From: Obrimoposthia wandeli
Lineage: Eukaryota
Direction of reading: 5' to 3'
Length of the DNA stretch: 64,000 bases
NCBI GenBank assembly: GCA_977020255.1
Contig: CDROCS010002224.1
Location: 372,001 to 436,000, forward strand
The notes under the pieces were generated by a model. The model saw only the letters and a list, made by a program, of their open reading frames with translations, did not search any database and was not told the origin of the DNA. Every line of letters begins with the position of its first letter. The stretch's first letter is position 1. Of this stretch, positions 3,467-23,685 are shown piece after piece. The translations under genes and the position numbers were made by a program.

Positions 3467-4510
3467 CTAGCAGTAACTCTTTAAGTTCTGGCTGGTAGAT
3501 GCTGATGGCAGAGGAGAAGCAATCTCCCAAGCCCTGGCTAAATTTTGGCTTATACTCAATGAAGCCGGTGCCATCTCCTGTAGACGTCGTTGACTGTGAG
3601 GCGGACTAATCTCGATCGGAGAGACTGGTATCGTCTCGTACAGAATTGGCCCGTCGACCACTGGAAATTGGAAAATCTCCTGCAGGCCAAACATCGCCTC
3701 AGAAGAATTGAGCATTGTGGTGCGACATTTTCTCGAACGTTTCGTCTTTCGCACCTCTGCTCGCTTCGTCCGTTTCTTGGGGAAAGGAGCACTTTCTCCC
3801 CATGCCTCCTCAATTATCTGGACGAGTTCCTGAAACAACAACAAAAAATAATTAAATTTTTAATTAAATTTTTAATTAAAAAATTATAATTAAATATTTA
3901 AAAATTTACCTCAATAATCGGATATGGAAGTTTTTCCTGCCGCTCCATCAACACCTCGATAGATTTGAGCTGACAAGATTTCACCTTTTTAGGGCGCCTC
4001 GTCTTCCGCACAGCAGCCCGCTTCATTTGTCTCTGCGAGAAAGGGTAAATTTTTCCCCACGTCTCCTCAGTTAATTCTATTAGTTCCTGCAACAAAAAAC
4101 ATCAATAAAATTTAAACATATAAATAATTTACCTCAATGACAGGCAGATTAGCTTGTTTCACCAACTTGGCCTTCTTCCGATGGACCGTCTGGGTTTTGA
4201 CCCGATGGCGTCGCGGTTACCTAATCGCCGCTTGCTTTCTATCCACCGGTTGAATAGGCGACGCTTCTTCGAGAAAGTTCTCCACATATGTGAATTATTA
4301 AATTTGATATCTAATTAAAATATAATTTACCTTAACATTATCTGGAGACGCTAGGTATTGGAGCTCACTTCTTGGCAGCTACTGGCTACATTGACTCGCC
4401 AAATATTTCGGTTCTATGAGCCTCTCCCCCGTGGTCACTGACGTTGCCAAATCGAGTTGAAGTTTCTGAAAATGAAATTACAAAACATTTTAAATAAATT
4501 AATAGACTAA
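3467..4510 (-). pseudogene. Relic paralog of the Polinton multi-exon accessory gene (exons 2-4, with exon 4 duplicated)
   Basis: Clear nucleotide similarity to 20780-21510 with the same intron positions. Shares GPILYE.IPVSPIEIS.P.SQRRLQE with ORF 20401-20970. Contains in-frame stops. Confidence 0.85.
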
Positions 4511-4794: not shown

Positions 4795-5271
4795 ACACAA
4801 AATATATTTTCCAAATCGAATCAACAATGTCTGGATAATCAAAATGTTTCCATCCCAAAATCATAACTTTACCACTGGAAAATATATTTACACATAGCGG
4901 TTTAAACTTCAAATAACTGAGAGCAGGAAACATTCCGGTTCAAACATGCATTATTTTTTCATTTTCTCTGCAATTTTATAAAGATTTATTTGTTTCCGGA
5001 GATTAGCTGAAATCGTGATTGATTGTATTGCAGTGATTTGAATTCCAAATGGTAAATTGAACTTAAGCAAAGGTATTTTGCATCCTATAACACGACAACT
5101 TCCTAAAAGAATTCAATATGAAATAAAATAAAAACTAACCTGAGGGCAAAATAACAATTATGAAATCATAAAACATTTTCACATATATTGTCTCGGCTTC
5201 CATTCATTGAATGGTAAGTACAAAACATCATCTTCTATTCTGCCTTTATCATTTATATTTACGAGTTTCAT
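4795..5271 (-). pseudogene. Second copy of the Polinton TBP-like gene, uninterrupted but decayed
   Basis: Reverse complement of 8221-8415 joined directly to 10080-10350. Same intron position (about 5103-5139). GAA>TAA stop and a frameshift near EPE.FPAL. Confidence 0.85.
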
Positions 5272-6182: not shown

Positions 6183-6830
6183 AGTAGGTGGATGTGTCCG
6201 GTCTAATCCACACCCCCTCTCCCCCCTTGTCCTTTAAAACCGTGCATGTGTGTGGAGAAAAAATTTCGTGTAGGTGTGTGGAGTGAAATTTCACTCCACA
6301 CACATGCACGGTTTTAAAGGACAAGGGGGGGTCCCAAAAAAAAATTATCTCCGCCCGGTGCGAAAGGCTCGGGACTCGTGTATATCACTAACGACCTTGG
6401 GTGATGGGCGAATGTCTCGGACTGCTGTATATCACAGACTACCTTGGGTGATGGGCGAATGTCTCGCTCTGGTGTATATCACAGACGTCCTTGGGTGATG
6501 GGCGAATGTCTCGCTCTGGTGTATATCACAGACGTCCTTGGGTGATGGGCGAATGTCTCGGACTGCTGTATATCACAGACTACCTTGGGTGATGGGTGAA
6601 AGTCGTTGGGTGTTGGGTGAAAGTCGACGGGTGATGGGTGAAAGTCGACGGGTGTTGGGTGAAAGTCGACGGGTGTTGGGTGAAAGTCGATGGGTGATGG
6701 GTGAAAGTCGACGGGTGTTGGGTGAAAATCGACGGGTGAAGGGTGAAAGTCGACGGGTGTTGGGTGAAAGTCGATTGGTGAAAGGTGAAAGTCTCGGTCT
6801 GGTGTATATCACAGACTTCCTTGGGTGAGG
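6183..6830 (+). repeat. Left TIR: nested palindrome, 5 x 47-bp units, 10 x 21-bp units
   Basis: 37-bp perfect inverted arms at 6221-6257 and 6294-6330. TATATCAC recurs at 6381, 6428, 6475, 6522 and 6569. GAAAGTC-type unit recurs every 21 bp from 6598 to 6787. Confidence 0.92.
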
Positions 6831-6972
6831 GATGAAAGTGATGATCAAATATCCTTACATGTTAAATATCTATGTCAGTTTTAGAATTTATAGGATAAAA
6901 AATCGGTCAGACCTATATAATTTAGAGGAGCAAAAACAAAATACGAGACAAAATTATTTTTCAAAATATTTA

Positions 6973-7377
6973 TTAAACATAAAACAACATATTGGCTTCA
7001 CTCAAAGTCCAAAGAGGCTGCATTTTCCCGTCATCAGCAAAATATCCATTGAGACGTATTGGGATATTCCATAGTTCTTCATCTAGAATTCGAGCAATCA
7101 AATATCCTAGATCATCTTTAAAATCCAGACTGGGATCAGTTTCAAGCTGGAAACAATTTCCTTCATATAAATAATCAGGAATGTAAAATCCCAAAATATT
7201 TTTCAATTGATCAATATCAGATGTTGTTAAAATTGCGATGAGATATTTATTCTCCACTTTTGATATTTTCACAGAATTCATAACTTGTATAATTTGATGC
7301 CTCTTTAATATATTACATAGTTTTCCTTTTGAAATTCTTTCTGGATAATAAAAATTTGCTACACATCTCTTATCCAT
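6973..7377 (-). CDS. Polinton accessory protein of unknown function (134 aa from MDKRCVANFYYPER)
   Basis: Open frame. TATAAA lies 32-37 nt upstream of ATG 7377. A homologous copy at 24244-24590 shows it is conserved between element copies. Confidence 0.7.
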   Translation of the reverse strand: MDKRCVANFYYPERISKGKLCNILKRHQIIQVMNSVKISKVENKYLIAILTTSDIDQLKNILGFYIPDYLYEGNCFQLETDPSLDFKDDLGYLIARILDEELWNIPIRLNGYFADDGKMQPLWTLSEANMLFYV

Positions 7378-7521
7378 TCTAAAATAAGGAAACTTATTAA
7401 AAACAATGTTTATAAAAAATACACATAAGATACATATAAGATACAAATATTTAAAAAATAAAACTGATTATTAAATGAAAGAAACTTAGTAAAACCGATT
7501 ACAATTTATTACACGCAAAAG

Positions 7522-8004
7522 TTAAAACATAGAAATATGAGCACGTTCAATTTTCCACATAGGCAACTTTGTTCCCATTTCATCTTTCTTGTAACCATAA
7601 AGTCGAATTGTTACAGTCCATTGCTTCTTTATCGGAAATGCATCAATATCAACATATCTTCCATAGTCATCTAGAAATGCTTCATTGGGTCCTCGGATAT
7701 AAAATTCATTCTTATTGAAAGTAAAATTCGGAACTGACTTTTCAATTTTCTGTTTAAGATATTGAAAATCTGGTATTTGAATATTTGATAGATAGTAGCT
7801 GAACTTTCTTCTTTCAATTGTCACAGGATTTACTAAAGCAATCAGTTGAGCCTTCTTCAAGAATCTGACTTTGTATTTGAAATATTGTTTCACTTCTTAA
7901 TACATATCCTTATCCGATTCTTCAAACATTTCCGAATCTTCGTCACCGCTTAATACCCGTTGGCTATCCTCCATCGTTGATAATTGTCTTTGATATGAAT
8001 GCAT
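7522..8004 (-). pseudogene. Polinton accessory gene with acidic N-terminus and one in-frame TAA; possibly SSB-like
   Basis: ATG 8004 (MHSYQRQLSTMEDSQ...DKDMY*EVKQYF) is in frame with ORF 7522-7893. Upstream TATAAAA and CCAAT. C-terminus WTVTIRLYGYKK...PMWKIE. Confidence 0.6.
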
Positions 8005-8220
8005 TTACTATGATTTGTCCTCCAATGGCGCATTATTTTATACTAATTTCTAACAAAAACATGAATCTCATTGGTTAATATAACAAAAGCATTGAATTGG
8101 ATTGGACTAAATATATCATCCAATTATAATAGGTTTGCAAGATAATTACAAGAAACGTGCAATAAAAAAGCAGGTTCAGACATATATAAAGAAGATTTTA
8201 CAGAATACAATTTCAGTCTA

Positions 8221-10396
8221 ATGAAACTCGTAAATATAAATTATAAAGGTAGAACAGAAGATGATGTTTCGTACTTACCATTCAATGAATGGAAGCCGAG
8301 ACAATATGTAGAAAAGTTTGACAATTTCACAGTTGTTATTTTTCCTACAGGTTAGTTTTTTTATTTCCATATTGAATTATTTTAGGAAATTGTCGTGTTA
8401 TGGGATGCAAAATACTGTTGGGTCTTTAATTAAGGTTAGTTAATTAAATTAAAGTCAATTTAAATTGACATTCTTTAAAATTATCTAAAGTGCCCACAAT
8501 TAGGGAGGTTTATCAAATCTCAGCCTCCGACGGGTTGTTAGCCCGTTTCGCCCTGCCGGGCTCGTCAGGAAGGCGGCGGTAAAAAAATGCAAATTTGACA
8601 GCAGATTATTTTTCCGCCCAGTCTACCAGCCTTGCAGCAGATCACCGTCGACATTCGTCCAGTCGGCAACAGTCAGCGGATCCCGGCTACCCACTCTCTT
8701 CCGCCATCCTTCCCCGTCGTTTTTCCGTCATCCTGATCGGTCATCCCGCCTGCCCATACCAATCTAGTAGCCACCATGGATCGGCTAGTCTACTGCTGTT
8801 GTATATCTCTCTTCTCTCTCCCTGTTCCCTTTCCCTCGCTCTATCTGCCAACAATGCTCGTTATGACGAGTCGATTTCCCTACCAACCAGTGCAGCCAAT
8901 CTAGTGCTGATGTCACTTACTTACTCTCCCTGTTCCCTTTCCCTCGCTCTATCTGCCAACAATGCTCGTTACGACGAGTCGATTTACTGCTGTTGTACAT
9001 AGCAGACAGTACTGACCAGTGGCTCGCCGTCAGCAACCACAGCAGCACCTCTCACATAAAAAGGTGTGCCTCTGAAGATCCCTTGCCTCTGAATGGCCTG
9101 GCAAGTGACAGAGCGGGATCGTCGACAACAACATACGTGTGTGCACATAGATCTGCACCAAGCTGGCCTGCATCGACCAGACAGATTTCTCGCCTTCCTC
9201 TCTCTTAGTTTCAGACTCCCTTGTTATGTCTCTCTTCCCGACAGTTTACCATGCTGACCGGTGTTACAAATCTCCAGCATTCTTCGCTGCCGGCCCGCAA
9301 TTCAACAGCAGCCGTAGAAACAACAACGAGCCACTACCGCCAATCACAGTAGGGCCAGAATAACAGATCGAGTTGGTCCAGTTCGCCAAGCTACCTAACC
9401 GATCTAATGTGGACTGAAGATAACGCATATCGCCTATACTGTTGCAGCCACATCTTCTGCCTTTCTATCGGCATCTCCATCAGCGGCATGGATCAATCAC
9501 GACACCAACAGAAGTAGTACTGGTCACCTGATGTCAGCCTGACACTCTAGCAAAGTCGGCTCCTCCCTACATCTACAAACTAGTCTTCTACCTTACTACA
9601 ACAGCAACATGTACTTTCTGCTGTGCCTGTAGTTTATGATTACACAATGCTCTCTCTATATTTGTTGTATCCCACTTTATTTTGTAGAAATTAACTGTTG
9701 TGTTCACATGATTCGGGTGTGCTGTGTGTGCAGTTGTCTAATTGACATTTGACATTTTTGCTATAAATAGCACTCGTCGTTGATCTGGATATTGATGTTT
9801 GTCACGCTTACAATTTATCTCTATTTCATTTTGGATACAATTTATTGAAAACGTTTATGCTTGAAAAAATAAATATTTGATTTTGAATTATTGGATCGTG
9901 TTTATTAAAAAGGAAGTTACGCTCTAACTATATTATAACAATTTGGAGAAATTATTAACCGACAATCCATTACATAACAATTGAATTATTGGATCGTGTT
10001 TATTAAAAAGGAAGTTACGCTCTAACTATATTATAACAATTTGGAGAAATTATATTGAGATATCCATTCATAACAATACCAATGCTTGGGTTCAATTTAC
10101 CATTTGGAATTCAAATCACTGCAATACAATCAATCACGATTTCAGCTAATCTTGGGAAACAGATAAATATTTTTAAAACTGCAAAGAAAATGAAAGAAGA
10201 ATGCATGCTTGAACCAGAAATTTTTCCTGCTCTCAGTTATTTGAAGTTTAAACCGCTATGTGTAAATATATTTTCCTGTGGTAAAGTTATGATATTGGGA
10301 TTGAAAAATTTTGATTATCCAGACATTGTTGATTTGATTTTAGATAATATATCTTATTACATCTTGTTATTTTTTTCTATAAACAAACCCGTTTAA
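8221..10396 (+). pseudogene. TATA-binding-protein-like gene (158 aa reconstructed; 35-nt intron; split by an LTR-like insertion)
   Basis: Join of 8221-8350, 8386-8415 and 10080-10396 is 477 nt and open. Repeat 1: LVNINY...FTVVIFPTGNCRVMGCK. Repeat 2: IQSITISANLGKQINI...LEPEIFPALSY...VNIFSCGKVMILGLK. Compare eukaryotic TBP IQNMVGSCD...YEPELFPGLIY...LLIFVSGKVVLTGAK. Confidence 0.85.
8416..10075 (+). mobile_element. Solo-LTR-like insertion (1660 bp)
   Basis: TGTT...AACA ends. 4-bp TSD ATAC at 8412-8415 and 10076-10079. TATAAATA near 9763 and AATAAA near 9868. Two internal direct duplications of about 70 bp. Absent from the 4795-5271 copy of the gene. Confidence 0.8.
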
Positions 10397-10407
10397 ACTT
10401 ATTGTTT

Positions 10408-10683
10408 CAAATGAATAATACTATAAATAGAGACAATGAAGTGGATCGACTTACCGACGAAATATTTTCTGGAAAAATTAGGGGTAAAGAAATTTTATCA
10501 GAATTAAAAAATAATGATATAACAAGAGATAACATTGAAATATTGGTTAGATCACACGTTATTCGAGAATTTAGAAATCGTACACAAATAAATAAAATTA
10601 TAGCCAAATATTCATTAATTAATTTTTGTATTTCATCTACAATAGCTCTAACATTGTATATTTCAATAAGGAAACTTCTATGA
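10408..10683 (+). CDS. Small protein with C-terminal hydrophobic helix (tail-anchor-like)
   Basis: Open frame of about 90 aa ending LINFCISSTIALTLYISIRKLL, located between the TBP-like and ATPase genes. Confidence 0.55.
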   Translation, partial: QMNNTINRDNEVDRLTDEIFSGKIRGKEILSELKNNDITRDNIEILVRSHVIREFRNRTQINKIIAKYSLINFCISSTIALTLYISIRKLL

Positions 10684-10720
10684 TAATATAAACAATATTA
10701 AAAATGAAAGAGTACATGTA

Positions 10721-11368
10721 ATGGAGCTAAATAATAATGCTGTATTTCAAATAGTTGGTCCCAGTGGAAGTGGAAAGACACATTTCGTATGTAAATTGTT
10801 GCAAAATGAATCTCTTTTCAAATCTAGTTTCAAAAATATTGATTGGCATCATGGTGGAGGAGGGGAAAGCGGATTAACCAAAACATAAGTTTGCAAGTTG
10901 AAGGGAATACAATTTATTGAAGGATTTGATGCAAATTGGTGTGAAAGATTGAAAAAAGAAGATGTAATAATAATTGATGATTTGTATCAGGAAGCTAACA
11001 AGGAATCGGACTTTAATTATTTATTTACAAAGATTGCAAGACATCGTGAAGTAACAGTTATATTTATCACTCAAAATCTTTTTCTCCAAGGAGGTCACCA
11101 TAGAACTAGAAATCTTAATGTGCATTACTTAGTTTTATTTAAAAATCCTAGAGATCAAACAGTTGTTGATTTCGTGGCCAGACAGGTATTTCCCCAAAAT
11201 AAGAACTTTTTAGTTGATTCATTCCACGATGCTGCTAAACAAGCACATTGGTATATATTTATTGACTTTACACAAGCTTGCCCAGATGATTTACGTGTTT
11301 TAACCGACATATTTAATTCTAAGGGAGTAACTGTTTATAAACAAATAGAGAATAATCATAAAAGATAA
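10721..11368 (+). pseudogene. A32/FtsK-like genome-packaging ATPase
   Basis: Walker A GPSGSGKT, Walker B IIIDDL, KIARHR and FITQNLF...R.LNVHYLVLFKNPRD. One in-frame TAA at 10886. Confidence 0.93.
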
Positions 11369-11375
11369 ATTTATA

Positions 11376-11531
11376 ATGCCTTTTAAGAAGTTGATAGTAA
11401 AACATAAAACAAAGCCTAAGAAATCAAAAAAAAGAATCATTAAGAAAAAAGAAGTGAAAAAATTAATCAAATCTGTAGTTAGAAATAAAAAAAAATTAAA
11501 TGTCTTCGAATATAAACAATATTTAAATTGA
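11376..11531 (+). CDS. 51-aa lysine-rich putative DNA-condensing core protein
   Basis: MPFKKLIVKHKTKPKKSKKRIIKKKEVKKLIK..., open, within the virion cassette. Confidence 0.5.
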   Translation: MPFKKLIVKHKTKPKKSKKRIIKKKEVKKLIKSVVRNKKKLNVFEYKQYLN

Positions 11532-11546
11532 ACCATTTTTATAAAA

Positions 11547-11874
11547 ATGAAGAAAATACAAAGAAGCATGCCCTATTTTAAAGCTTTGGTTAAAGCCTCT
11601 TTTATAAGAGAATGAGTATTCTTAAAGTATTTCCATCTTTTGTTGTATATGATTTATTGGAAGTTTTCTATACTATAGTTTTGGGTCGAGTAAAAGATGG
11701 AAACAGAAAAATGTATTAAAGAAATATAGAAAAACTCTTCTAGATATTGCTAATGTAAAAAGTAAAAAAAGGAAACGAAATATTATTCTTAAACAAAATG
11801 GTGGTTTCATAGGGGCTGTCATTCCAGTCGTTGCTTCAATTATCAGTAGTATTATAGCTGCGACACGATCATAA
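11547..11874 (+). pseudogene. Polinton virion core protein with adenain-type cleavage site
   Basis: Frameshifted. Basic body ends KRKRNIILKQNGGFIGAVIPVVASIISSII, the QxGG^F plus hydrophobic tail pattern seen in Polinton core proteins. Confidence 0.7.
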
Positions 11875-11960
11875 ACAATTATTTATAAAATCAGCTAAAG
11901 ATATGGGTGCTAACCCTTCTTTACCTAAATTTAAATTTTCTTTCTATTCAAATTGTTGTA

Positions 11961-12956
11961 ATGGAGAAGATATGGTTCAACCCAAAAGATCCAATTGGCT
12001 ACACAGGAGTTTCAAAATTAGCAAAAAGAACAAAACAAAATTACAAGAAAACGCAGAAATGGCTGAGCGACCAGTTAGCCTACAGTCTGAACAAGCCGAT
12101 GAGAAGAAGGTTTTCAACTAGAGCTTACAAAACCAGCGGTCCCAATAATTTATGGCAAATGAATTTGATGGAGATGATCCCTTATTCTTCCATTAATAAG
12201 GGATATCGATATATTTTAACATGTATTAATGTATTTAGCAGGTTTGCTCGTGAAATTCCAGTTAAAGCAAAGTCTTCAATACCTATGCTTGAAGCCATTA
12301 AAGAAATATTAAAATGGAACAGAATTTTATAATAAGCAAGTTCAATCATTATTTAAACAAAATAATATAAATCACTACTCAGTGTTTTCACAGTACAAAG
12401 CAGCAGTAGTAGAAAGATTTAATCGTACTTTAAGAGATCGAATAAAAAAGTATTTCACAAAAGAAGGAAATAAAAATGGATCCAAGTTTTACCTAAAATA
12501 ATACATGCATATAATCACTCGGAACATAGAGGTCTCAAGGGAATGAGACCTGTTGATGTTACTAATAAAAATTCTATGGATATTTGGATGAACAAGAATA
12601 AAAAAGAAAATATTAAAAAAGCTAAATATAAGAAAAACGAATATGTCCGAATTTCGAAAATTAGCTCTACTCCATTTATTAAAAACTTTGATCAGAATTG
12701 GAGCGATGAAATATTTTGTATAAGTAAAATTGATCAAAAGAGTAATCCAATAATGTATACTATTAAAGATGCTGACAATAATATCGTTCACGGTAAATTT
12801 TACGAGCAAGAACTACAAGTAATATCAAATAAACCTAGCGTTTTCCGTATTCAAAAAATATTAAAATCTAAGGGTGCCGGTAAACATAAACAATACTATG
12901 TTAAATAGCATGGTTATTCAGATCCAACTTGGATATCAGCATCTAATATAATATGA
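11961..12956 (+). pseudogene. Retroviral-type (rve) integrase with C-terminal chromodomain
   Basis: LWQMNL, YILTCINVFSRF, NGTEFYN, VVERFNRTLR, MRPVDV and YYVK*HGY...TW. Two Asp>Asn changes, deletion of the QTD motif, frameshifts and TGG>TAG. Confidence 0.93.
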
Positions 12957-14017
12957 AGTCTACGTATATGGTTTTATCTAGTAACGGATGCCCGAAGACT
13001 CAACCAGATAATTACGCTAGTAGCTTTATTTATCGATTGGGAAAATCCTATAAATCTCCAAGGAGAATGGGAAGCGGCTTTAACAGAATTTTCCTTTTAT
13101 TATTCTCCAATAACTATCAGAAAAAACTCACATATTTCGTTTACAAAAGACGTTAATCATGAAAAATCAATTGAAGTTGTGATTGGGTTTGATAGTAAAG
13201 GAAAATTCTATTACAATTGTATAGATAAAGAAGTGAAAGTAATATATGAAAAAAACAAAGTCAGATTTAAAAATAGACTAAAACATTTTTTAAAACCTAT
13301 TCAAATTATATTTGGATCTGATAGAGAAGCTCTTCAATTCGGGTTTGACAGTGGACATGTAGTAGGTATGAAGAGATCTGATATAGCCTCATCTAAATCG
13401 TTTAAAAATGTTCCTGATAGAGTAACAAAAGTGTTTTTAGTTGAAACGACACCAAAGTATGTAGTGGAACTGAAAATGTTTTCAAAAGATTATAAATTAG
13501 ATAGTGAAGTGAATTTCTGTAAATTAATACAGAAGGAATGTAGTGAATATTTCGATAAATGTGTAACATTAAAAAATGGTTAAATAACGTTTACAGTAAA
13601 GAGCAATATAATACAAGTTTTATTTGATGATAAACTCGCTAAAAACCTTAGTTAAACTGTAATACTTTTGAAACCCATACAATAAAAACCATAAAAGCTA
13701 AAAATAAGGCAAAACTTTTAAATGCTGTTAATCATTTATATATTTATACTAATTTAATAGAACCAACGCTTGTAGGAGGACAGCGAGTTCCACTTTTGAG
13801 AACAATATGGATATCTAAAAATGAAACTAGAGATGGGGACGCTGTCGGTATGTGTATAGATCAATCAATGTATCTTCCAGTTTCTCTCTTTTCTATAAAC
13901 AATATTGAAGTAAATATTAGAGATGATTCCGGACAACTAATAGATTTCACGTACGGGGCCAAGACAAGTTTAACAATACATTTAAGAAAACAAAATGGCG
14001 AATACAGCAATAATTGA
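12953..14017 (+). pseudogene. Minor capsid protein (penton, PX)
   Basis: N-terminal MVLSSN...P.NYASSF..WENPINLQGEWEAALTE. C-terminal YIYTNLIEPTLVGGQRVPLLRT...IEVNIRDDSGQLIDF...LTIHLR. Frameshifts and stops. Confidence 0.85.
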
Positions 14018-14372
14018 AGCTTATAGTCAAAGCCAACAAGGTGGAGAATTACCATATTTTGTTGGTAAACAATATGGATCTGGCTGGCTTAGAACATTAG
14101 GTAGATTTGCCTTTCCTCTTTTAAAGAGACTCGGGCGATTTATATCAAAATTAGGAAAGGATTACCTTTCATCTAAGGACAATAAACTAATACCAACTTT
14201 TAAGAAGCATGCGCTTGATGAACTTGATAATGTTTTACCTGAAGTTGCTAATTTGATTAGAAAACGTAAATCAAATAAAAACCAAGGAGGTAGTGGATTT
14301 AAAAGTAAAAAGAAGCAAAAAATCAATATAAACAAACGTAAGAATGTTGAAGGAACAATATTTGCAAAATGA
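13995..14372 (+). CDS. Virion core / amphipathic (adenovirus pVI-like) protein, 125 aa
   Basis: Intact. QQGG^E, QYGSG^WLRTLGRFAFPLLKRLG amphipathic helix and basic C-terminus. Sits directly upstream of the MCP. Confidence 0.75.
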   Translation: MANTAIIEAYSQSQQGGELPYFVGKQYGSGWLRTLGRFAFPLLKRLGRFISKLGKDYLSSKDNKLIPTFKKHALDELDNVLPEVANLIRKRKSNKNQGGSGFKSKKKQKININKRKNVEGTIFAK

Positions 14373-15599
14373 GTTGCGCCAAAACTGAATTGTGTATTTT
14401 TGATAAACCACTTCCACAAGTAGTTGTAGATAATGCTATCTTTGAAGAAATATTTCCAGTTAACTCAGTTTCAGGAACCACTTTAACCGATTTAGAATTT
14501 AATATTAATGGTTCCAATAGCGAGTATTTAGATTTGAATGATACTTTGCTTTATGTTCAAATAAAAGTACTAAATCGGGATCGTACTAATTTAGATGAAA
14601 ATGCTGATGTAACACCTGTAAATTATCTCTTTAATTCTTTATTTAGTGATGCCATTGTTACTCTTAATAATGTCAAAATTGAAGGTGGAAATTCTTCCTA
14701 TGCTCATAAAGCTTTGATTGAAAGTCTTTTGAATTATAGTACTGATACTCAAAATACCAATTTGGCAACCATTGGTTATGATAAAACGGTCGCAACTCGC
14801 AAAGAATGGATTGCGGGTTCTAAAGCTTACGAAATGTGTGGGTCTTTGAGATTGAATTTCTTTGAACAACCGAAATATTTAATTCCCGATGTTAATGTAC
14901 ATCTTCGTTTGAAACGTAATAAATGGAAATTTTCTTTGATAAGCACAGTACGTTCTAAAACCTAGACTTGATATTTTGGATGCAAAATTGTATGTCCGAA
15001 GAGTTAAAACCGAGCAATCAGTTTTAATGGCACATAATATAGGAATGGAAAAAAACAATGCTTGTTATCCTATTAGAGAAACTAAACTTATATCCTATTC
15101 TTTAGGTACGGGTACACAAGCTTTTAATAAGGATCAAATATTTGGTGATGTAAGATAACCGAAATTCATTTTAATTTCTTTTCAAAAAACTGCAAAGTTT
15201 CTAGGAAATTATACGACAGATGCAACTCAATTTGACAATCTTAATGTAGGTTCAGTGACACTTTCAAGAAATACTGATTATCGCGAAACATATAAGACAG
15301 ATTTCAAAGGTAACGCGTATGCTTTGGCTTATACGCAATCTATTATTCGGAATTTGGGTCAACTAGATAAAAATATAAACAATGATATTTCTTTCACTGA
15401 GTTTAAAAGCAGCTGACCCTTCTTCACATTTGTTTTGGCACCAGACTTTGATATAAACCAATGCCAACTACCAAAGGATGGAAATTTACGACTAGAAATT
15501 AAATTCAATGCAGCTTTAACACATGCTACTACGGTGCTTATTTACGGAGTGTTTGATTCCGAAATACAAATCAATAAAAACAGAACTGTCATATTATAG
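14369..15599 (+). pseudogene. Double jelly-roll major capsid protein (hexon, PY)
   Basis: MSCAKTELCIFDKPLPQ...LEFNING...YLDLNDTLLY, YAHKALIESLLNYS, F...APD and GNLRLEIKF...LIYGVFDSEIQINKNR. Frameshift near 14960 and internal stops. Confidence 0.92.
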
Positions 15600-15600
15600 A

Positions 15601-15981
15601 ATGAAGTAAGACATTTTTAAAATTTATATTTATTAATTTTTATTTAGTTCAGTACAAGTACAAGAATCAGCAGAGAAGGTCTTGGGTGATAAATTCAATG
15701 GAGTTTATCCTATTGATATGATTCCATTTTTTCAATCTGGAGGATACATTATCAATACTAATACTTCGAATTTACCAGGAGAACATTGGATAGCTATTTA
15801 TGTTAGAGAGTGGACAATACATGTATTTGATCCACTTGCAATGTATTATCCACACAAACTTGTTTCAACTATTCAAAAAGGACGAAGAAGAGTATTTTAC
15901 AACAAGATACAATATCAGGATCCTGCAAAGAGAAACTGTGGACATTTCTGTATTTTATGGTTATCGTTGCAAAATGATTAG
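15601..15981 (+). CDS. Adenain-type cysteine protease (maturation protease), two exons, apparently intact
   Basis: Join of 15601-15605 and 15648-15981 gives MNSVQVQE...FNGVYPIDMIP...IINT...PGEHWIAIY...FDP...QYQ...NCGHFC (His, Asp, Gln, Cys). 42-nt GTAAG...TTTAG intron. Confidence 0.9.
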
Positions 15982-16087
15982 TGTGTTATAAAAATTAAAA
16001 TTTTAAATGTTTTATTTTGAATTTTTTTTTAAAATCCCTAAAAATATAAGGGTAAAATAATAAAAGACATAAGACGAAATTTTTTTT

Positions 16088-16099
16088 AATAAATTTATT
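16088..16099. terminator. Bidirectional poly(A) signal (palindrome AATAAATTTATT)
   Basis: AATAAA on both strands, between the convergent protease and pPolB 3' ends. Confidence 0.5.
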
Positions 16100-16124
16100 A
16101 AAAACAACATCACAATGAGATCTG

Positions 16125-19035
16125 TCAGCAAAGATAAGGTCCATCCTAAAAAATGTTTTGAAATAACAAAAAGTTAGAGTCAAGGTGCCATAGGGATTTA
16201 AAATTTTAAAAAACTAGACTTACACTTTCAAATTCAGTTATGGGTGGGATTTCTGTAGTATTTTCTAAATCTGCAAAGGTTTTCGCAAATTTATACGGAA
16301 AAATCCCCTTATCATTAACCGAAGCTGAGAACACTGACTGTGTGATAGGCCTTGCATTTAAAGATGCCGTTAAATTTTTTAAAGACCCACTCAAAAACTA
16401 CAGAGAATCTATGAATCTTAAACTGCAGAATTCAGTATATGCAGTTAAAGATAAATATTTCTCTGAAGTTTGATGTATACATGAAATTTCCCAAGAGCTT
16501 AATGTACCCAACGCATATTTAAGTATATGATGTAAATGATATCCTCTGAGGTTATGAATCACGATGGTAATTCGTGGTTTTTAGGGAGACGACGCCCAAG
16601 GTTACAGAGGTTGCACACCGCTCCCAAGTATCGCCCCGTAACATGATCGTGATCTCTGACTAACTTAGACTGGGTTCCACACAAATAACATAATCTGCAA
16701 GAATTAAAATTAACCTAGTCTATGCCTGTCATGATCATTGCTTGATGAGCATTAAGATCATACCACGGTTTGACAATTGTTGTTCCTAATTCTTCTAATT
16801 TTAACATAAAATCTAAAATACAATTTGGACCGGAAAATTTATGAAACTGGGTAATATTGGGGCCTAAGAATAGTAGTCCTGCCGAAGCCGGTAGGTGAAT
16901 ACTCTCATACTGGTCGTGCAATGCTAAAATTGACTCAAAATCTGCATACACCCTGAATTCCACGGGTATGCATTTTACCCAATCCCTGAATTTTAAATCC
17001 TTATCCTTAGGCATGCTATATAGCGTATTGTCATCAGGATTCAGTGAACATAATGTCAGATGTTTGCTGTAAGAGAGCTCGGATCGGAATCCATGCAAAC
17101 ATATATGACACCACTTACACCTTATCCTAACCGGTAATGCTCCATTATCCAAATTTAGAAGACGATCTAAACTTGGAATTGCAGCATAACGGAATTTATT
17201 TTTCTGTTAGAACAAAAATAAGATGACCTGAGTCCCCTCATTTTTGCTCCTATAAATTACATCTACAAAAGGATTTTTAAATATTTCATCATCTGTTACA
17301 TTAACTGGGATATCAGTATTATATATGAATACATTAATACTCAAGTTATTAAGATGTTCAAATCTTGATATCGCAGTTAATTTAACAGGAAAATCTATTC
17401 CATGATACTGCAATTCATTTTAAAAAGGGGTATACTTACTTACACTCTCTCTATGTTCAGTAATTACACCCCTTTGGAGGATGGCCAACACGCTATACAG
17501 AAAGCAAAGGTTATCACTGTTTTGTATGTTAACAATGGAACGTGAAAGTTGAAGAGATCTAGGTGAAGGAATGTATGAACTCCCCGAAAGATATATCATG
17601 TCAGTGAACTTTGTTAGAACAAAGCTAACATCGTGAATTCTAACTAGATTCCATCCACTACTTAACTCGCTATAATTATCAATTTTTTCATCTAGGTTTC
17701 TTCCAATTTCAGTTACAAAATTATCATAGAAAACAGTTGCTTTATGTGAAATTACCCAAGTTTTAGTCTCCTCATTGACATTTTTAAACTGCACTGTTGC
17801 ACAAAATTGAACCATAGCCTGTCCTAATTTAGTCACTTCTGATTTTAAAAGATTTTCAATATTTGAATCTACACCTACGTTTAATAAAATTTCATTTCCT
17901 TATGGCACCTTAACTATAACATATTTATTATTTAGGTTATACTCTATAATAGCACCGTTTTCTCTACGTTTTTTTGGTGGGACCTTATTAAGAAATTAGC
18001 CTCGCCTCTTTCTTCCTACAGTAGCTGACAAACCTCCCCCTAATTGAACGGGAAGACAACTATTTATATTAACAGTTGAGGTGTAAGGTGCTGCTATTGG
18101 TGATGCTGCCGATGTTGAGGCAATCGCAGCTGATGTAGTAGATGCTGCTGTAGTAGATGCTGCCGCAGTTGTAGATGCTGCATTTGAGGTAGGAGCTGAC
18201 CTTGCCGATGAAGAAGCGGCTGTTGTAGAACATGATGCTGCTGAAAAAATATATTAAAAAATTAATATATTTTTAAATATTATGACCTTTAAGACGTGCT
18301 AACATCGCGATGTAGGCACTCGCGATGGGGGAGGCAAAGCTGTCGTAACGGATGACGGCTGTATCAGGGTATTTAAAAATATAAAGTAATAAAAATAAAA
18401 TATATATAATTACAATTTAAAAAAGAATCTGAAAAAATAAAATTAAAAAATACCTAATGAAGGCAATCCAACTGGAGCTGGAATGAAGTCCTCTTCATTG
18501 ATGGAATCCATCCAGCTGTCGTCCGTTATCTCGACGAAATCAGATTCCTCGATGGTCTCCAACCATGAGTTATCGCTCCATTGCTCTATCTCGAAATCTG
18601 ACTGGGATATGTCATTCATCCACTCATTGTTAGTCATTGGAGTGGATGGGACAGAATCAGGAGCCGGGAGACCAATCACAGGACTGTAAACGGGTTGATC
18701 GACTGCAACTGGAATTGGGGCAGGTGCGGCCTGCGAATCGCGCACCAATTGCACGATATCCCTCTTCTTGTTGTTGGCCGTGAAACACGATAGATGAGCT
18801 CGATGTTCACCGAAGAAGTCACGTAACTCCTTCTCCTCCATTGTTCTGCAGAAGAGGCAGACGAAGAAGTGAAGCCCGCGAGACTTTGTCCGATAGTAGG
18901 CGGACATTATCTCTATGCAGGTCTCTCCTCCATGCGGAGCCGAAGCACCACAATATGCTGGAAACAGGATACAAGTAATCTGAAATAATAAATATTAATA
19001 ATGAAATAATAAGTATAGATTCTTACCATAGTCAT
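16125..19035 (-). pseudogene. Protein-primed PolB gene: N-terminal extension, endonuclease VII-like and exonuclease regions; polymerase domain absent
   Basis: Exons 19027-19035, 18454-18979, 18287-18358 and 18240 to about 16224. Motifs SGWNL..I, GSSYIP...IVNIQNSD.LCFLYSVLA, GIDFPV...FE..N.LSINVF, C..CL.GF...H...C, VYADFES, VRDHDHVTGRY.GA.C..CN, HNLRGY, LRFIDS and FPY. The homology stops at IPPITEFES. Confidence 0.88.
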
Positions 19036-19236
19036 TATTTCAAATAGTCGGGGATTTTAATGAAGAAAGTGTTTGCTTATATACTAAAATTTATGCACAC
19101 ATGCTCTTTTCCTATTGGATTAAAAAAATTGAGAAGGATTGTTTATCTGTTAAATGGTCGAAAAATATATTTTTTATTACTCCAATCAAAAATAATTATT
19201 TGTAATTGAATGAAAATTATGAATTAGAAGAATTGT

Positions 19237-19722
19237 TTATCTACATGTCAAGTAATAATAAGATAGACTTAAACATTTTTTATATGCGCAATGGTCACCA
19301 TGATTACGATATGGACAGCAAATATTTTCTGGAATTTTTAATATATGATCAAGTGAAATATTTAAAGTATTCAATCTCAATTTGGGAAAATATTTTTTTA
19401 AAGTCTTATACTTTTTGCCATCCATTTCATCTAAAACATAAAAAATTCCATTTTCTATATCAAAATTAGATGTTATTGTATCGAAAATACATATTTCACA
19501 AAAAGCCTTATGTCCTTTCCATTTTAATAAATGAAAGTAATTTGTTAGATATAAATTAGTAAATTTTTTCTTATAATCTAAACTTTTAAACGGGATATCT
19601 ATTTGAAATATGAAATGCGAAGGATGAAAAACGTCGCATACATCCATAATACATAATTCTTTTATAATATAATCACCATTTTTGTTAATGAAAGCCTCAA
19701 AATCTATAATTTATTCTTGCAT
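19237..19722 (-). pseudogene. DEDD-family 3'-5' exonuclease-like accessory gene
   Basis: MQE*IIDFEAF....DYIIKELC...HFIFQ..., ending CPYRNHGDHCAYKKC. ATG 19722 is in frame with ORF 19237-19647. Upstream TATAAA and CCAAT. Confidence 0.7.
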
Positions 19723-19868
19723 AATTATCTAAATTTGCAGAAAATCCCGTTGTTTATAACGAAAAAATTTATTAAAATAACAAAGTACTTTCATGTTAAG
19801 ATTGGTATATATTGTCAATTCTCCTATAACATAACATAATCAATAAAGACAAAATAATAATCAAAATT

Positions 19869-20189
19869 TTATTTTTTTGTAGAAGGACCCTCTTCCGGTT
19901 TAATCTGGAGGATTCTCTTTCTTGCTGCTCGCCGAACATCCTCCATCTCTTCTCTTCTTTTTTCATCCACCTTCCTTTTTTCCAATTCGATCTTCTTATT
20001 CCACTCCACGATTCGACGGCGTTCTGCTAGCCTCCTATCCTGTATCTCCACCTGATGATTCCACTCGGTCGCGACAGAAGTATACAAATTTTGATTGAGG
20101 ACCCTCTTTCTTAAGTCCCCTTTCTTCTCATTTATTCTGATGTTTGCTTCAATCTTCGTTACCAGACTCTTCATTTTAATGAATTCCAT
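19869..20189 (-). CDS. 106-aa charged coiled-coil protein
   Basis: Intact E/K/R-rich ORF with upstream TATA and CCAAT. Confidence 0.6.
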   Translation of the reverse strand: MEFIKMKSLVTKIEANIRINEKKGDLRKRVLNQNLYTSVATEWNHQVEIQDRRLAERRRIVEWNKKIELEKRKVDEKRREEMEDVRRAARKRILQIKPEEGPSTKK

Positions 20190-20400
20190 TTTTTAATTAT
20201 GAAGAGGTTAATAAATTTGAACCTATATATATAAATTTAAGATATTTTTTAATCCAATTAAATGATATATTTTTATTTATAAAATGAGAGTTTAATAAAT
20301 CTATAACTTATCATTGCAAATAAACCTAATAAACTTAAAGATAGTATTTCTAAATTTTAATTTTTAAAAAAAATAAATATTAAGAAGAAAACATATGAAA

Positions 20401-22191
20401 TTAATTTTTATAAATTATATTCTTAAACATCTTTACAAAGTCATCATTGGGATCATCCTGATCGAAATCCCTCCGACTAAGTATTATTGGAGAAAGCGGT
20501 ACTGGTTCCTTCATATTTGGCCGGCGCGGTTTCTTTTTCGCCTTCACCGGTTCTTTTGTAGCAATTTTCCTTCCCTCAGGTTTTGGAAATAGTTGCCGCA
20601 ACTTTTTGGGAGGAGGTGCAGCCGATGTTGATGGCCCTGACATAGAAGTCCTCTTCCTCTTCTGCGGAGCTTTCTTCTGTTTCTCCTCCTTCTCACGCTG
20701 AAGCTGGAGTGAGATGGCATCCTGTTGGCCTCGCGAATCTGGAAGCATTGCCGGTGTATCCAGTTCCGCCAGGAATTCGTCCAATCCAGCTTCATCCCAG
20801 GCCCTCTTTAAGTTATGGCTGGTTGTTGGACGAGGAGAAGCCGGTGATGTCTCCTGCAGGCGTCGTTGACTTGATGGCAGACTAATCTCGATCGGTGAGA
20901 CTGGGATCCTTTCGTATAAAATTGGCCCGTCGTCCACTGGAGATGGGAGAATCTCCTGCCGTCCAATCACCGCCTCAGAATAATGGCAAATGAGGTGCTA
21001 CATTTTCTCGAGCGCCTCGTCTTCTTCACCTCTGCCCTCTTTGTCCGTTTCCGGGAGAAAGGAGTAATTTCTCCCCGAGTCTCCTCAAATATCTGGACGA
21101 GTTCCTGCAAAAATATTAATAAAATTTAAAAATATAAATAATTTACTTCAATGATGGGCAGGTTAGCCTGTTTCACCAACTTGGCCTTTTTCCGAGTGAG
21201 GGTTTTGACCCGATGACGTTGCGGTTTCTTAACTGCCGCTTGCTTCCTATCCACCGGTTGAATAGGCGTCGCCTCTTCGAGAATGTTCTCCATCTATGTG
21301 AATTATTAAATTTAATATCTAAATAATTTACCTTAAAATTATCTGGAGACGCTAGGTATCGGAGCTGACTCCTTGGCAGCTCTTGGCTGCATTGACTCGC
21401 CAAGTACTGCGGTTCAATCAGCCTCTCCGTCATGGTCACTGACGGTGCCATATCCAGTTGAAGTTTCTGAAAATGAAATTAAAAAACATTTAAAATAAAT
21501 GATGTCTAACCTCATTCGTCACTTTTATTCTCCTAACAGGAGATTTCGGCCTTTTGAATGGTTCAGGCGTTGTATTATCTGCTTTCAGAGTAGCAGAGGG
21601 AGTGAGACCATCCCAATCGTCGGTGAACAAGTGCCATTCGTCCTCGTCCAATTCTGCAACTATCGAATCGTTGGCTCCTGGGGCTCCGATACTTGGCTGT
21701 ATCCATTCGTCGATGAATGGAGTCAAGTCCTCCTCCCCATCCGACGGTACATCATCGGTGAACAGCTCCTCGTCTGAGTCTGGTGCGAGGACTTTCTCCG
21801 GCTGAGACAGCGGGATCAATTTCCATGGCCAGGATCTCCTTGCTGCTACTGCTGAAGTTGCCGGACGATTGGGTTTTGTGTTTTGCCTGGGAGTACAGTC
21901 TTCACAATTCTCAATCGGATCCTGACTAGTCAGGTCAATATATTGGGATCTCTGTACCCCGCCTCTCACGTCCATTGGTTCTTCTCTTGGAGTTGAGCTG
22001 GCCAATGAGGCTTCTTCTTCCAACAGGTTCGCTCTTGCTGCTGCTTCTCCTTCGCTCACCACCGATGAGTCTTGACTATCTAAGTCAATGTATTGCGACG
22101 GTGGTGGCGTTCGCTGCTGCACTGGAGAGAGATCCCCATAGAGTTGAACCTCCGTCTCTTCGTCTAGGTCAACGTTGTTGTAGAATGGCAT
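20401..22191 (-). pseudogene. Four-exon, low-complexity (acidic/Pro-rich then basic) regulator-like accessory gene
   Basis: Exons 21511-22191, 21332-21466, 21147-21293 and 20401-21104. GT-AG introns of 44, 38 and 42 nt, also present in the paralog at 3.5-4.5 kb. Two frameshifts relative to that paralog. Confidence 0.75.
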
Positions 22192-22502
22192 TGTTAATTT
22201 ATGAAAAATAATGAACGGAGGTATCTTTATATACACAAACATCTTACTAACTCTTTTTTATTGTCCAATGAGAGCCTCTTATTCAAATAATTTATTTTTT
22301 GTAATTTTTTCGTGCCTGGAGATAAAGAATGAAGCCCTAAGGGGTGGGTAGTGTATGTTAGGGTCTTGGGTATGACACGGGTCGTTTACATGTGTAGTTG
22401 TGAGGGGTAAAGTGATACTGTAACGCATGTAGTTGTAGTTATTTTCGTGAGAATAGAGCCCGCCACTAAAGGGGCGGGTGGTGGTCGGTGGGTGTTTCCG
22501 TA

Positions 22503-23685
22503 CAACACCCATCGATTTTCACCCATCACCCGTCGACTTTCACCCATCACCAGTCGACTTTCTTCCATCACCCCAAAAAAGTCTGTGATATACAGCAGAG
22601 CGAGAAATTCGCCCATCACCCAAGGTAGTCTGTGATATACACCAGAGCGAGACATTCGCCCATCACGCAAGGTAGTCTGTGATATACACCAGAGCGAGAC
22701 ATTCGCCCATCACGCAAGGTAGTCTGTGATATACACCAGAGCGAGACATTCGCCCATCACCCAAGGTAGTCTGTGATATACAGCAGCCCGAGACATTCGC
22801 CCACCACCCAAGGTAGTCTGTGATATACAGCAGTCAGAGACATTCGCCCATCACGCAAGGTAGTCTGTGATATACACCAGAGCGAGACATTCGCCCATCA
22901 CCCAAGGTAGTCTGTGATATACAGCAGTCAGAGACATTCGCCCATCACGCAAGGTAGTCTGTCATATACACCAGAGCGAGACATTCGCCCATCACCCAAG
23001 GTAGTCTGTGATATACAGCAGTCAGAGACATTCGCCCATCACGCAAGGTAGTCTGTCATATACACCAGAGCGAGACATTCGCCCATCACCCAAGGTAGTC
23101 TGTGATATACAGCAGTCAGAGACATTCGCCCATCACGCAAGGTAGTCTGTCATATACACCAGAGCGAGACATTCGCCCATCACCCAAGGTAGTCTGTGAT
23201 ATACAGCAGTCAGAGACATTCGCCCATCACGCAAGGTAGTCTGTCATATACACCAGAGCGAGACATTCGCCCATCACCCAAGGTAGTCTGTGATATACAG
23301 CAGTCAGAGACATTCGCCCATCACGCAAGGTAGTCTGTCATATACACCAGAGCGAGACATTCGCCCATCACCCAAGGTAGTCTGTGATATACAGCAGTCA
23401 GAGACATTCGCCCATCACGCAAGGTAGTCTGTCATATACACCAGAGCGAGACATTCGCCCATCACCTAAGGTAGTTAGTGATATACACGAGTCCCGAGCC
23501 TTTCGCGCCTATAGGCGCGAAAAAAATGTTCGGGACCCCCTTTCCTTGTCCTTTAAAACCGTGCATGTGTATAGAGTGAAATTTCACTCCTCACACCTAC
23601 ACGAAATGTCACTCCACACACATGCACGGTTTTAAAGGACAAGGGGGGAGGGGTGTGTGGATTAGACCGGACACATCCACCTACT
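22503..23685 (-). repeat. Right TIR: 3 x 21-bp units, 20 x 47-bp units, nested palindrome
   Basis: GT(G/C)ATATA core every 47 bp from 22585 to 23478. A/B variants alternate as a 94-bp dimer from about 22807 to 23460. Inverted arms at about 23543-23648. Confidence 0.93.

Follow-up and report, generated by a model that had tools for sequence, protein, structure and literature searches.

Probable Inherited Microintrons in Core Genes of a Polinton Clade from the Genome of Obrimoposthia wandeli

The Element and Its Families

The window, that is, the whole stretch of DNA analysed here, covers 64,000 nucleotides (nt) of Obrimoposthia wandeli (assembly GCA_977020255.1, contig CDROCS010002224.1, positions 372,001 to 436,000 of the forward strand), and it contains a decayed Polinton/Maverick element in which four genes (those of a TBP-like protein, an adenain-like protease and the polymerase pPolB, plus one accessory gene) are interrupted by eight short segments with the borders of spliceosomal introns. 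All positions are those of the window.

6183..23685, no strand assigned: Polinton/Maverick element, decayed, 17.5 kb; its terminal inverted repeats contain 47-nt and 21-nt tandem arrays

Regarding its ends, the element has AG...CT termini, the outermost 40 nt of both ends are identical at 36/40 positions, and the flanks form a near-perfect 6-bp target duplication, agreeing at 5/6 bases; its genes are those of the TBP-like protein, ATPase, integrase, capsid proteins, protease and pPolB, together with accessory genes. Stops, frameshifts, a 1.66-kb insertion in the TBP-like gene and the loss of the polymerase core mark the window copy as dead, and it belongs to a high-copy Polinton family. In this genome of 1.35 Gb, each of four element parts used as a DNA query drew between 1,904 and 6,022 first-look candidates (40 of each were scored), and searches for the TBP family and for PF03175 drew 19,768 and 24,442 of them, a sign of a huge Polinton load, although these figures count candidates and not copies. 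At least five element families with a TBP-like gene occur in the genome, named A to E here, the window copy being a member of family A.

The Eight Segments as a Set

The eight segments all start with GT and end with AG, have 82−91% A+T, and measure 35 nt in the TBP-like gene, 42 nt in the protease, 47, 95 and 46 nt in pPolB, and 44, 38 and 42 nt in the accessory gene; a preliminary description of this DNA had reported them as AT-rich GT-AG introns, and its coordinates, lengths and borders were all verified. A chance filter, designed after the introns had been seen, was applied to 16 element regions, sense strand only, and returned 6 matches, against ~0.95 expected from base shuffles, five of the six being introns already described; it failed to pick the 46-nt and the 38-nt introns, and the 95-nt intron lies beyond its range. 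The sixth match, an intron candidate in the minor capsid gene (13727-13760), was rejected as false because one copy carries that gene as a single frame of 436 codons.

Comparison among close family-A copies (11, 29, 29 and 19 copies for the four genes, the window's own locus excluded) found that only 3 of 592 splice-dinucleotide positions deviate. Indels per kb in introns and flanks were 18.9 and 2.2, 0.9 and 0.07, 7.8 and 0, and 5.2 and 1.6 in the four genes, and the intron lengths change by amounts that are not divisible by three; as in U2-type introns, the GT-AG ends are retained while the interior drifts. Removal of the segment gives the colinear protein of intronless homologs for the protease and the TBP-like gene; intronless homologs turned up neither for the accessory gene nor for the introns of the pPolB linker.

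A reading of the segments as AT-rich spacers or decay after insertion, with GT-AG ends due to chance, could draw on the heavy decay of the window copy, on the false candidate that passed the filter and on one boundary, in pPolB, that is a coincidence of this copy. It is very improbable, because site, phase and GT-AG ends are kept across families with ~50% protein identity while the interiors are unrelated, and because relatives without the segment encode the exact junction, as detailed below for the single genes.

The Protease Intron

The protease offers the widest comparison, with its start codon on a first exon of five coding nucleotides.

15601..15605, + strand: protease exon 1, coding part: the ATG and the next 2 nt
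15606..15647, + strand: protease intron, 42 nt, phase 2; families B and C and metagenome relatives have it at this same position, with 38−43 nt
15648..15981, + strand: protease exon 2, adenain-like, 110 codons

As for its identity, the protein matched PF00770 under the cut-off (E 0.0036), its His, Asp, Gln and Cys are invariant, and the profile search gave weak matches to African swine fever virus pS273R and adenain only; a word-indexed protein search found 1 homolog. Exon 2 is 48−52% identical among the host families A, B and C, and in all three the intron follows gene base 5, with a length of 42 nt in family A, mostly 40 nt in B and mostly 39 nt in C; its ends are GT..AG in 29/29 copies of family A, 17/20 of B and 16 of the 18 usable copies of C (two C copies were skipped). 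A metagenome scan for protease relatives yielded 13 loci, 11 of which extend to the gene start: five have the intron at the same site (L255, L256, L261, L262 and L263, with L256 and L263 near-identical) and six have none (L257, L258 and L264-L267). Seven viral-contig loci were dropped as relatives, as they matched by a 21-residue motif only and had no other element gene.

Over the seven intron-bearing lineages, the lengths are 42, 40, 39, 38, 43, 40 and 41 nt, which covers all three classes modulo 3, and the phase is always 2; the interiors have an identity of 0.65, versus 0.61 for shuffles. The intronless L257 and L258, with proteases 46−48% identical, start with M-D-S exactly at the junction. 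This intron, and the others shared in this way, thus occur in families at ~50% protein identity and in metagenome relatives; the preliminary description had held that they predate the insertion in the window, and they are much older than it supposed. The comparison of positions across family copies, which it had set as a check, found site and phase retained and host intron lengths of a comparable class.

If unspliced, the protease message reads two codons and then a stop in all seven lineages. The first in-frame Met of exon 2 falls after the catalytic His in family B (10/10 open copies), and there is none in family C (10/10). Among 150 protease homologs, 62 start with M-x-x-x-[QE]-[ILV] and 45 with M-[ND]-[STG], and several of the closest database proteases have either an internal-Met start or an N-terminus rich in F/L/I/Y, which is what a gene caller would make of an unrecognised intron.

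The TBP-like Intron

The intron of the TBP-like gene lies within the coding sequence, and it has a counterpart in a relic copy.

8221..8350, + strand: TBP-like exon 1, 43 codons plus 1 nt; 49−56% identity to families B, C and D
8351..8385, + strand: TBP-like intron, 35 nt, phase 1; 34−41 nt in other family-A copies
8386..10396, + strand: TBP-like exon 2, split in the window copy by the 1.66-kb insertion
5103..5139, − strand: intron of a relic TBP-like gene, 37 nt, its site being that of the 8351..8385 intron

The downstream part of exon 2 matched PF00352 (E 1.5e-9). Among 30 loci of a TBP family search and the window relic, the junction is uninterrupted in 8 family-B loci, and it is likewise uninterrupted in 2 family-E loci, inside a conserved I-F-x-x-x-x-C-R-x-M-G stretch, and at that very site, always in phase 1, unrelated introns occur in families A (34−41 nt), C (38 nt) and D (39 nt). 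The junction in family B reads AG/GT, the usual proto-splice sequence.

The claim that splicing restores the frame therefore stood for the protease (phase 2) and the TBP-like gene (phase 1), with junctions as intronless relatives encode them; for the 95-nt pPolB intron it held in the window copy only. Similarly, intron positions were said to be shared with relic copies, and this is so for the TBP-like relic and the relic of the accessory gene; no protease or pPolB relic was seen in the window, the evidence on those two genes being drawn from copies elsewhere.

Two side observations concern this gene. The 1.66-kb insertion in exon 2 (8416-10075, edges set against copy L047) has TG...CA ends and a 4-bp target duplication, and it looks like a solo long terminal repeat (LTR) or a non-autonomous LTR element. 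In addition, two intronless two-repeat TBP-family genes (L165 and L166, frames of 231 and 241 codons) occur besides an intron-split pair on contig C238.

The pPolB Introns

In pPolB, the first intron directly follows the start codon, and the other two are located in a low-complexity linker.

19027..19035, − strand: pPolB exon 1, coding part, ends at the start codon
18980..19026, − strand: pPolB intron 1, 47 nt, phase 0, directly after ATG
18454..18979, − strand: pPolB exon 2, with an N-terminal domain rich in Cys/His and an acidic stretch after it; families B and C have homologs
18359..18453, − strand: pPolB intron 2 as first drawn, 95 nt; donor common to the family, 3′ boundary of this copy only
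18241..18286, − strand: pPolB intron 3, 46 nt (46−48 in copies), within a linker rich in Ser/Ala/Thr; family C showed no such intron
16115..18240, − strand: pPolB body, with stops and frameshifts; internal deletion near 16220, polymerase core gone

Exon 2 has the substitution pattern of a coding sequence, with 55, 78 and 148 changes at codon positions 1, 2 and 3. Intron 1 is also present in family C (43 nt in 18/20 copies) and in the metagenome locus L262 (51 nt); exon 1 of family C ends in ATG in 20/20 copies, and the intron is bounded by GT..AG in 19 and by GC..AG in one. It is absent in L258, and family B seems to be without it. Introns 2 and 3 were seen in family A only.

As for intron 2, the exon 3 that starts from the acceptor of the 95-nt form has 72 nt in the window and 70 nt in 13/13 other copies, where it is out of frame and contains a stop; a YAG placed 17 nt further upstream, present in 11 of those 13, gives instead an exon of 87 nt that keeps the frame and is stop-free in 10, with an intron of 74−79 nt (98 nt in one copy). 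Intron 2 is judged to be real on this comparison, the 3′ boundary and the frame restoration of its 95-nt form belonging to the window copy only. Treating exon 3 as a skipped or "poison" exon was discarded, the upstream acceptor in 11/13 copies being simpler, though skipping also keeps the frame.

Regarding the rest of the gene, 28 of 29 copies cease to align with the window pPolB at 16215-16232, the deletion point, and one ceases earlier; two copies were observed to have ~0.85 and 1.3 kb more DNA there. The polymerase core is missing from the window copy, and its pPolB pieces gave no Pfam match. PF03175 frames elsewhere in the genome reach 1255 codons, many being uninterrupted beyond 1,200; two that were checked belong to family E, not A, and share the N-terminal domain. 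A family-C pPolB copy has an endonuclease VII domain. Gene order also differs: pPolB and the TBP-like gene are in divergent arrangement in families B and E (L175, L192 and L268, versus the window), and it lies 3′ of the protease on the opposite strand in families A and C.

The first introns of protease and pPolB have another conceivable explanation, namely that the segments end in acceptors for a distant upstream leader, spliced in cis or in trans, so that the adjacent ATG and donor would not be the main first exon. Flatworms use spliced-leader trans-splicing (PMC6530080, in the part available), and family E has an AT-rich, acceptor-like stretch before its polymerase frame, overlapping the TBP-like start region, without an adjacent ATG. 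This explanation is improbable: the ATG and the next two bases are kept beside the protease donor in 19/20 family-B copies, 17/18 family-C copies and all 5 metagenome cases, where they supply the M-[ND] start of the intronless relatives, and a leader leaves the mid-gene introns of the TBP-like and accessory genes unexplained.

The Accessory Gene Introns

The accessory gene contains three of the eight introns, all in phase 0.

20401..22194, − strand: accessory gene, four exons, acidic N-terminal exon; exon 4 frameshifted in the window copy
21467..21510, − strand: accessory intron 1, 44 nt, phase 0
21294..21331, − strand: accessory intron 2, 38 nt, phase 0
21105..21146, − strand: accessory intron 3, 42 nt (41 nt in 10/19 copies), phase 0
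3561..4500, − strand: relic accessory gene, three intron positions kept, one with a decayed acceptor; one extra exon-intron unit

Each of exons 2, 3 and 4 is free of stops in 19 of 20 copies, and exon lengths are constant in nearly all 20. The gene had no Pfam match, and it was not found in the family B or C stretches examined. An extra exon-intron unit was observed in the relic (3780-4140) and in L202, not in the window lineage; neighbouring introns share flanking sequence there, which suggests duplication and loss of phase-0 units.

This gene also bears on the idea that the introns are recent mobile insertions of the introner type, taken from the host after integration, as in dinoflagellate polinton-like viruses. 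Insertions of this kind have been reported in eupolintoviral elements (PMC12166617, available in part), and accessory introns 2 and 3 resemble each other in their initial sequence, a similarity that also fits the duplication of an exon-intron unit just described. Each intron is present in every aligned family-A copy, and therefore the introns were copied with the element; moreover, orthologous introns are no more alike inside than shuffles. A recent introner origin is contradicted by these comparisons and hardly credible, while an ancient one may still apply.

Genes without Introns and Neighbouring Features

The remaining core genes of the element have no recognised introns.

10721..11368, + strand: packaging ATPase, A32-like; no intron; broken in the window copy
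11961..12956 (ends approximate), + strand: retroviral-type integrase; no intron seen; broken in the window copy
14369..15599, + strand: double jelly-roll major capsid protein; without intron; window copy broken; stop 1 nt before the protease ATG

In copies of families A and B, the capsid gene is a single frame of 409−410 codons and the ATPase one of 212−215 codons, in line with the preliminary description, which had listed capsid, ATPase and integrase as intronless. For the integrase this holds only via the relative L261, whose gene is a single frame of 351 codons, 52−56% identical to the window pieces; no unbroken family-A copy was seen. The spacing of two integrase segments is 616−636 nt in A, B, C and L261, versus 624 nt in the distant L264.

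With regard to the assignments, PF04665 matched the ATPase of copy L047 over the cut-off (E 1.2e-5), and the integrase piece of the window gave a weak rve match (E 0.003), that of L261 having rve at E 1.6e-11 and a chromodomain. The Pfam search gave nothing for the capsid, the accessory gene and several small genes; a structural model of the capsid from copy L033 (pLDDT 69.5) matches double jelly-roll capsids from PBCV-1, iridovirus and mavirus, with a best E of 3.6e-14. The minor (single jelly-roll) capsid protein, without Pfam match, is assigned by position only.

Other observations concern the surroundings. Two neighbouring minus-strand genes at 6973-7896 are paralogs (26−29% identical to each other in copies), without Pfam match, and the sequence at 28000-29300 resembles a piggyBac-type transposase, by eye only. 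Copies from different Polinton families often lie inside or beside one another (L195, L198, L201, L202 and L206), which suggests insertion hot spots. Finally, the assembly contains bacterial contigs, with hslV-hslU operons from several bacteria (L110-L118).

Host Introns and the History of the Element Introns

Junctions in host myosin and proteasome genes (n = 25), fitted by reading frame, comprised 9 introns of 38−58 nt, 2 of 76−85 nt, 9 longer ones and 5 without a fit. For one host proteasome subunit, the top full-length matches were flatworm sequences, and on this single protein the host is probably a flatworm. The proteasome subunit genes mostly match the family model in one frame and are intron-poor, and the myosin genes have many introns (L093-L105). 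Flatworm microintrons, in the available part of PMC6530080, have a length peak at 37 nt, are clustered and are biased towards 5′ ends; size, clustering and 5′ bias match those of the element introns, and the flatworm cases were reported from genes of the host, none from viruses or transposons. That the host uses very short introns, as first suggested, is supported by the 9/25 junctions of 38−58 nt; long co-evolution with this single host is weakened because the same introns occur in metagenome contigs of unknown host.

As for phylogeny, a capsid tree of 11 rows, with L256, L257 and L267 left out and with long outgroup branches, unites families A, B and C, the intron-bearing metagenome loci and L258, which is intronless, in one clade (99/99), outside which fall three distant elements without introns; a protease tree (45 rows) was mostly without resolution. 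Gain of the introns inside the clade would be the simplest reading, because distant Polintons have no such introns, with some lineages being without them, gene by gene. L258 and families B and E may be primitively intronless or may have lost introns. The extra introns of the pPolB linker and the accessory gene, seen in the window's family only, would be younger.

Comparison with Known Systems

The element shares with animal Polintons/Mavericks (Eupolintoviridae, "adintoviruses") the AG...CT inverted termini, the 6-bp target duplication, a putative pPolB, the rve integrase, the A32-like ATPase, the adenain-like protease, the double jelly-roll capsid and the protease start beside the capsid stop, as far as the available parts of the sources go (PMC8097293, PMC8502044, 10.1101/2022.07.12.499685); it differs from them in its conserved protease and pPolB introns and in its TBP-like gene, since their core genes are reported as intronless. 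The statement that Polinton core genes are usually described without introns agrees with the portions of the literature available. Vertebrate Mavericks have intronless core genes, and "intact" ones are defined by intronless open reading frames (ORFs) (PMC8097293); the nematode Maverick has introns in cargo genes only, its core genes being intronless (10.1101/2022.07.12.499685); in mavirus-like elements no gene has an intron (PMC8547959); and surveys of endogenous polinton-like viruses use prokaryotic gene callers, arguing that such elements contain no introns (PMC10120064). In the accessible text on Polintons and introns, no report of conserved introns in animal Polinton core genes was found, and multi-exon annotations may sit in supplements, Repbase reports or founding papers; likewise, the parts available of PMC8502044, 10.1101/2023.08.22.554363, PMC12220804, PMC8547959, PMC5718144, PMC4028283, 10.1101/2024.03.25.586562 and 10.64898/2026.10.13.758929 mention no spliceosomal introns in Polinton core genes.

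Two further systems are comparable in part. Dinoflagellate polinton-like viruses with introners also have spliceosomal introns inside polinton-type elements; according to the portion of PMC12166617 available, those introns are mobile, mostly acquired after integration, and ~25% are in coding regions, whereas the introns described here are fixed, inherited and orthologous, with unrelated interiors, in an animal-associated clade. Adenoviruses are Polinton relatives with pPolB and adenain that use host splicing, with introns mostly at 5′ ends; they have long, alternatively spliced leaders and do not integrate, while the introns considered here measure 35−80 nt, so the likeness is an analogy (PMC7851563, in part).

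Interpretation and Significance

The comparative evidence that the segments are introns is strong, and they very probably are real, inherited U2-type microintrons within one Polinton clade. The element would be transcribed in the host nucleus, with the host spliceosome removing the introns like the host's own 38−60-nt introns. Splicing is proposed to be required for making protease and polymerase, because their start codons sit on tiny first exons and the unspliced protease reads two codons and stops; retention of the introns would follow because damage to a splice site destroys an essential protein. Splicing in vivo and purifying selection as the reason for intron retention are what we infer from these data.

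Several points weigh against this interpretation. The family-A counts are best-scoring matches versus one reference, and therefore they are not independent events; pPolB exons 3 and 4 and accessory exon 4 show no codon-position bias; and the accessory intron interiors have changed less than their flanks (1.8% versus 3.4%). Exon 2 of the family-A protease has a Met at codon 24, upstream of the catalytic His, and therefore a shortened protease could start there without splicing. The host introns were fitted by frame and not read from RNA. Finally, the capsid tree leaves the order within the clade open, so that gain and loss are not separated, and the grouping of the intron-bearing lineages is not rejected (p-AU 0.417).

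The start codons of adenovirus polymerase and pTP come from a short upstream exon, a point for which the literature search gave no supporting passage. In the present clade, the introns after the start codons might similarly form a regulatory switch, which times or limits the protease (on a message that it would share with the capsid) and the polymerase; this would add to the inherited-intron interpretation and is rather doubtful. The two most widely shared introns both part the ATG from an enzyme, the capsid and ATPase genes being without introns, retention brings the stop after codon 2 in 7/7 lineages, and adenovirus introns have the 5′ placement noted above (PMC7851563, in part). However, the retention stop is automatic from a phase-2 GTAA/GTGA donor, the close relatives L257 and L258 manage without both introns, and the 5′ bias is general in flatworm microintrons (PMC6530080, in part); in addition, the protease start adjoins the capsid stop in intron-bearing and intronless elements alike (L257, L264 and L266 among the latter). 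A bolder version, slightly more doubtful still, is that of a widespread animal polintovirus clade with protease and polymerase start codons on micro-exons, in which splicing would act as a switch among dormancy, replication and virion maturation, an adenovirus-like control to which ORF surveys would be blind.

In conclusion, inherited microintrons in this clade would contradict what the field takes as a working assumption, the controls by presence and absence being unusually clean, and a clade in which such introns are obligatory would be mis-annotated or scored as dead by ORF-based surveys. With introns present or absent at orthologous sites in at least five families of one genome, the gain and loss of introns in a virus-like mobile element can be studied conveniently here. 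Conserved introns would also imply long-term expression via the nuclear RNA polymerase II and the spliceosome of the host, which bears on the replication mode of Polintons.

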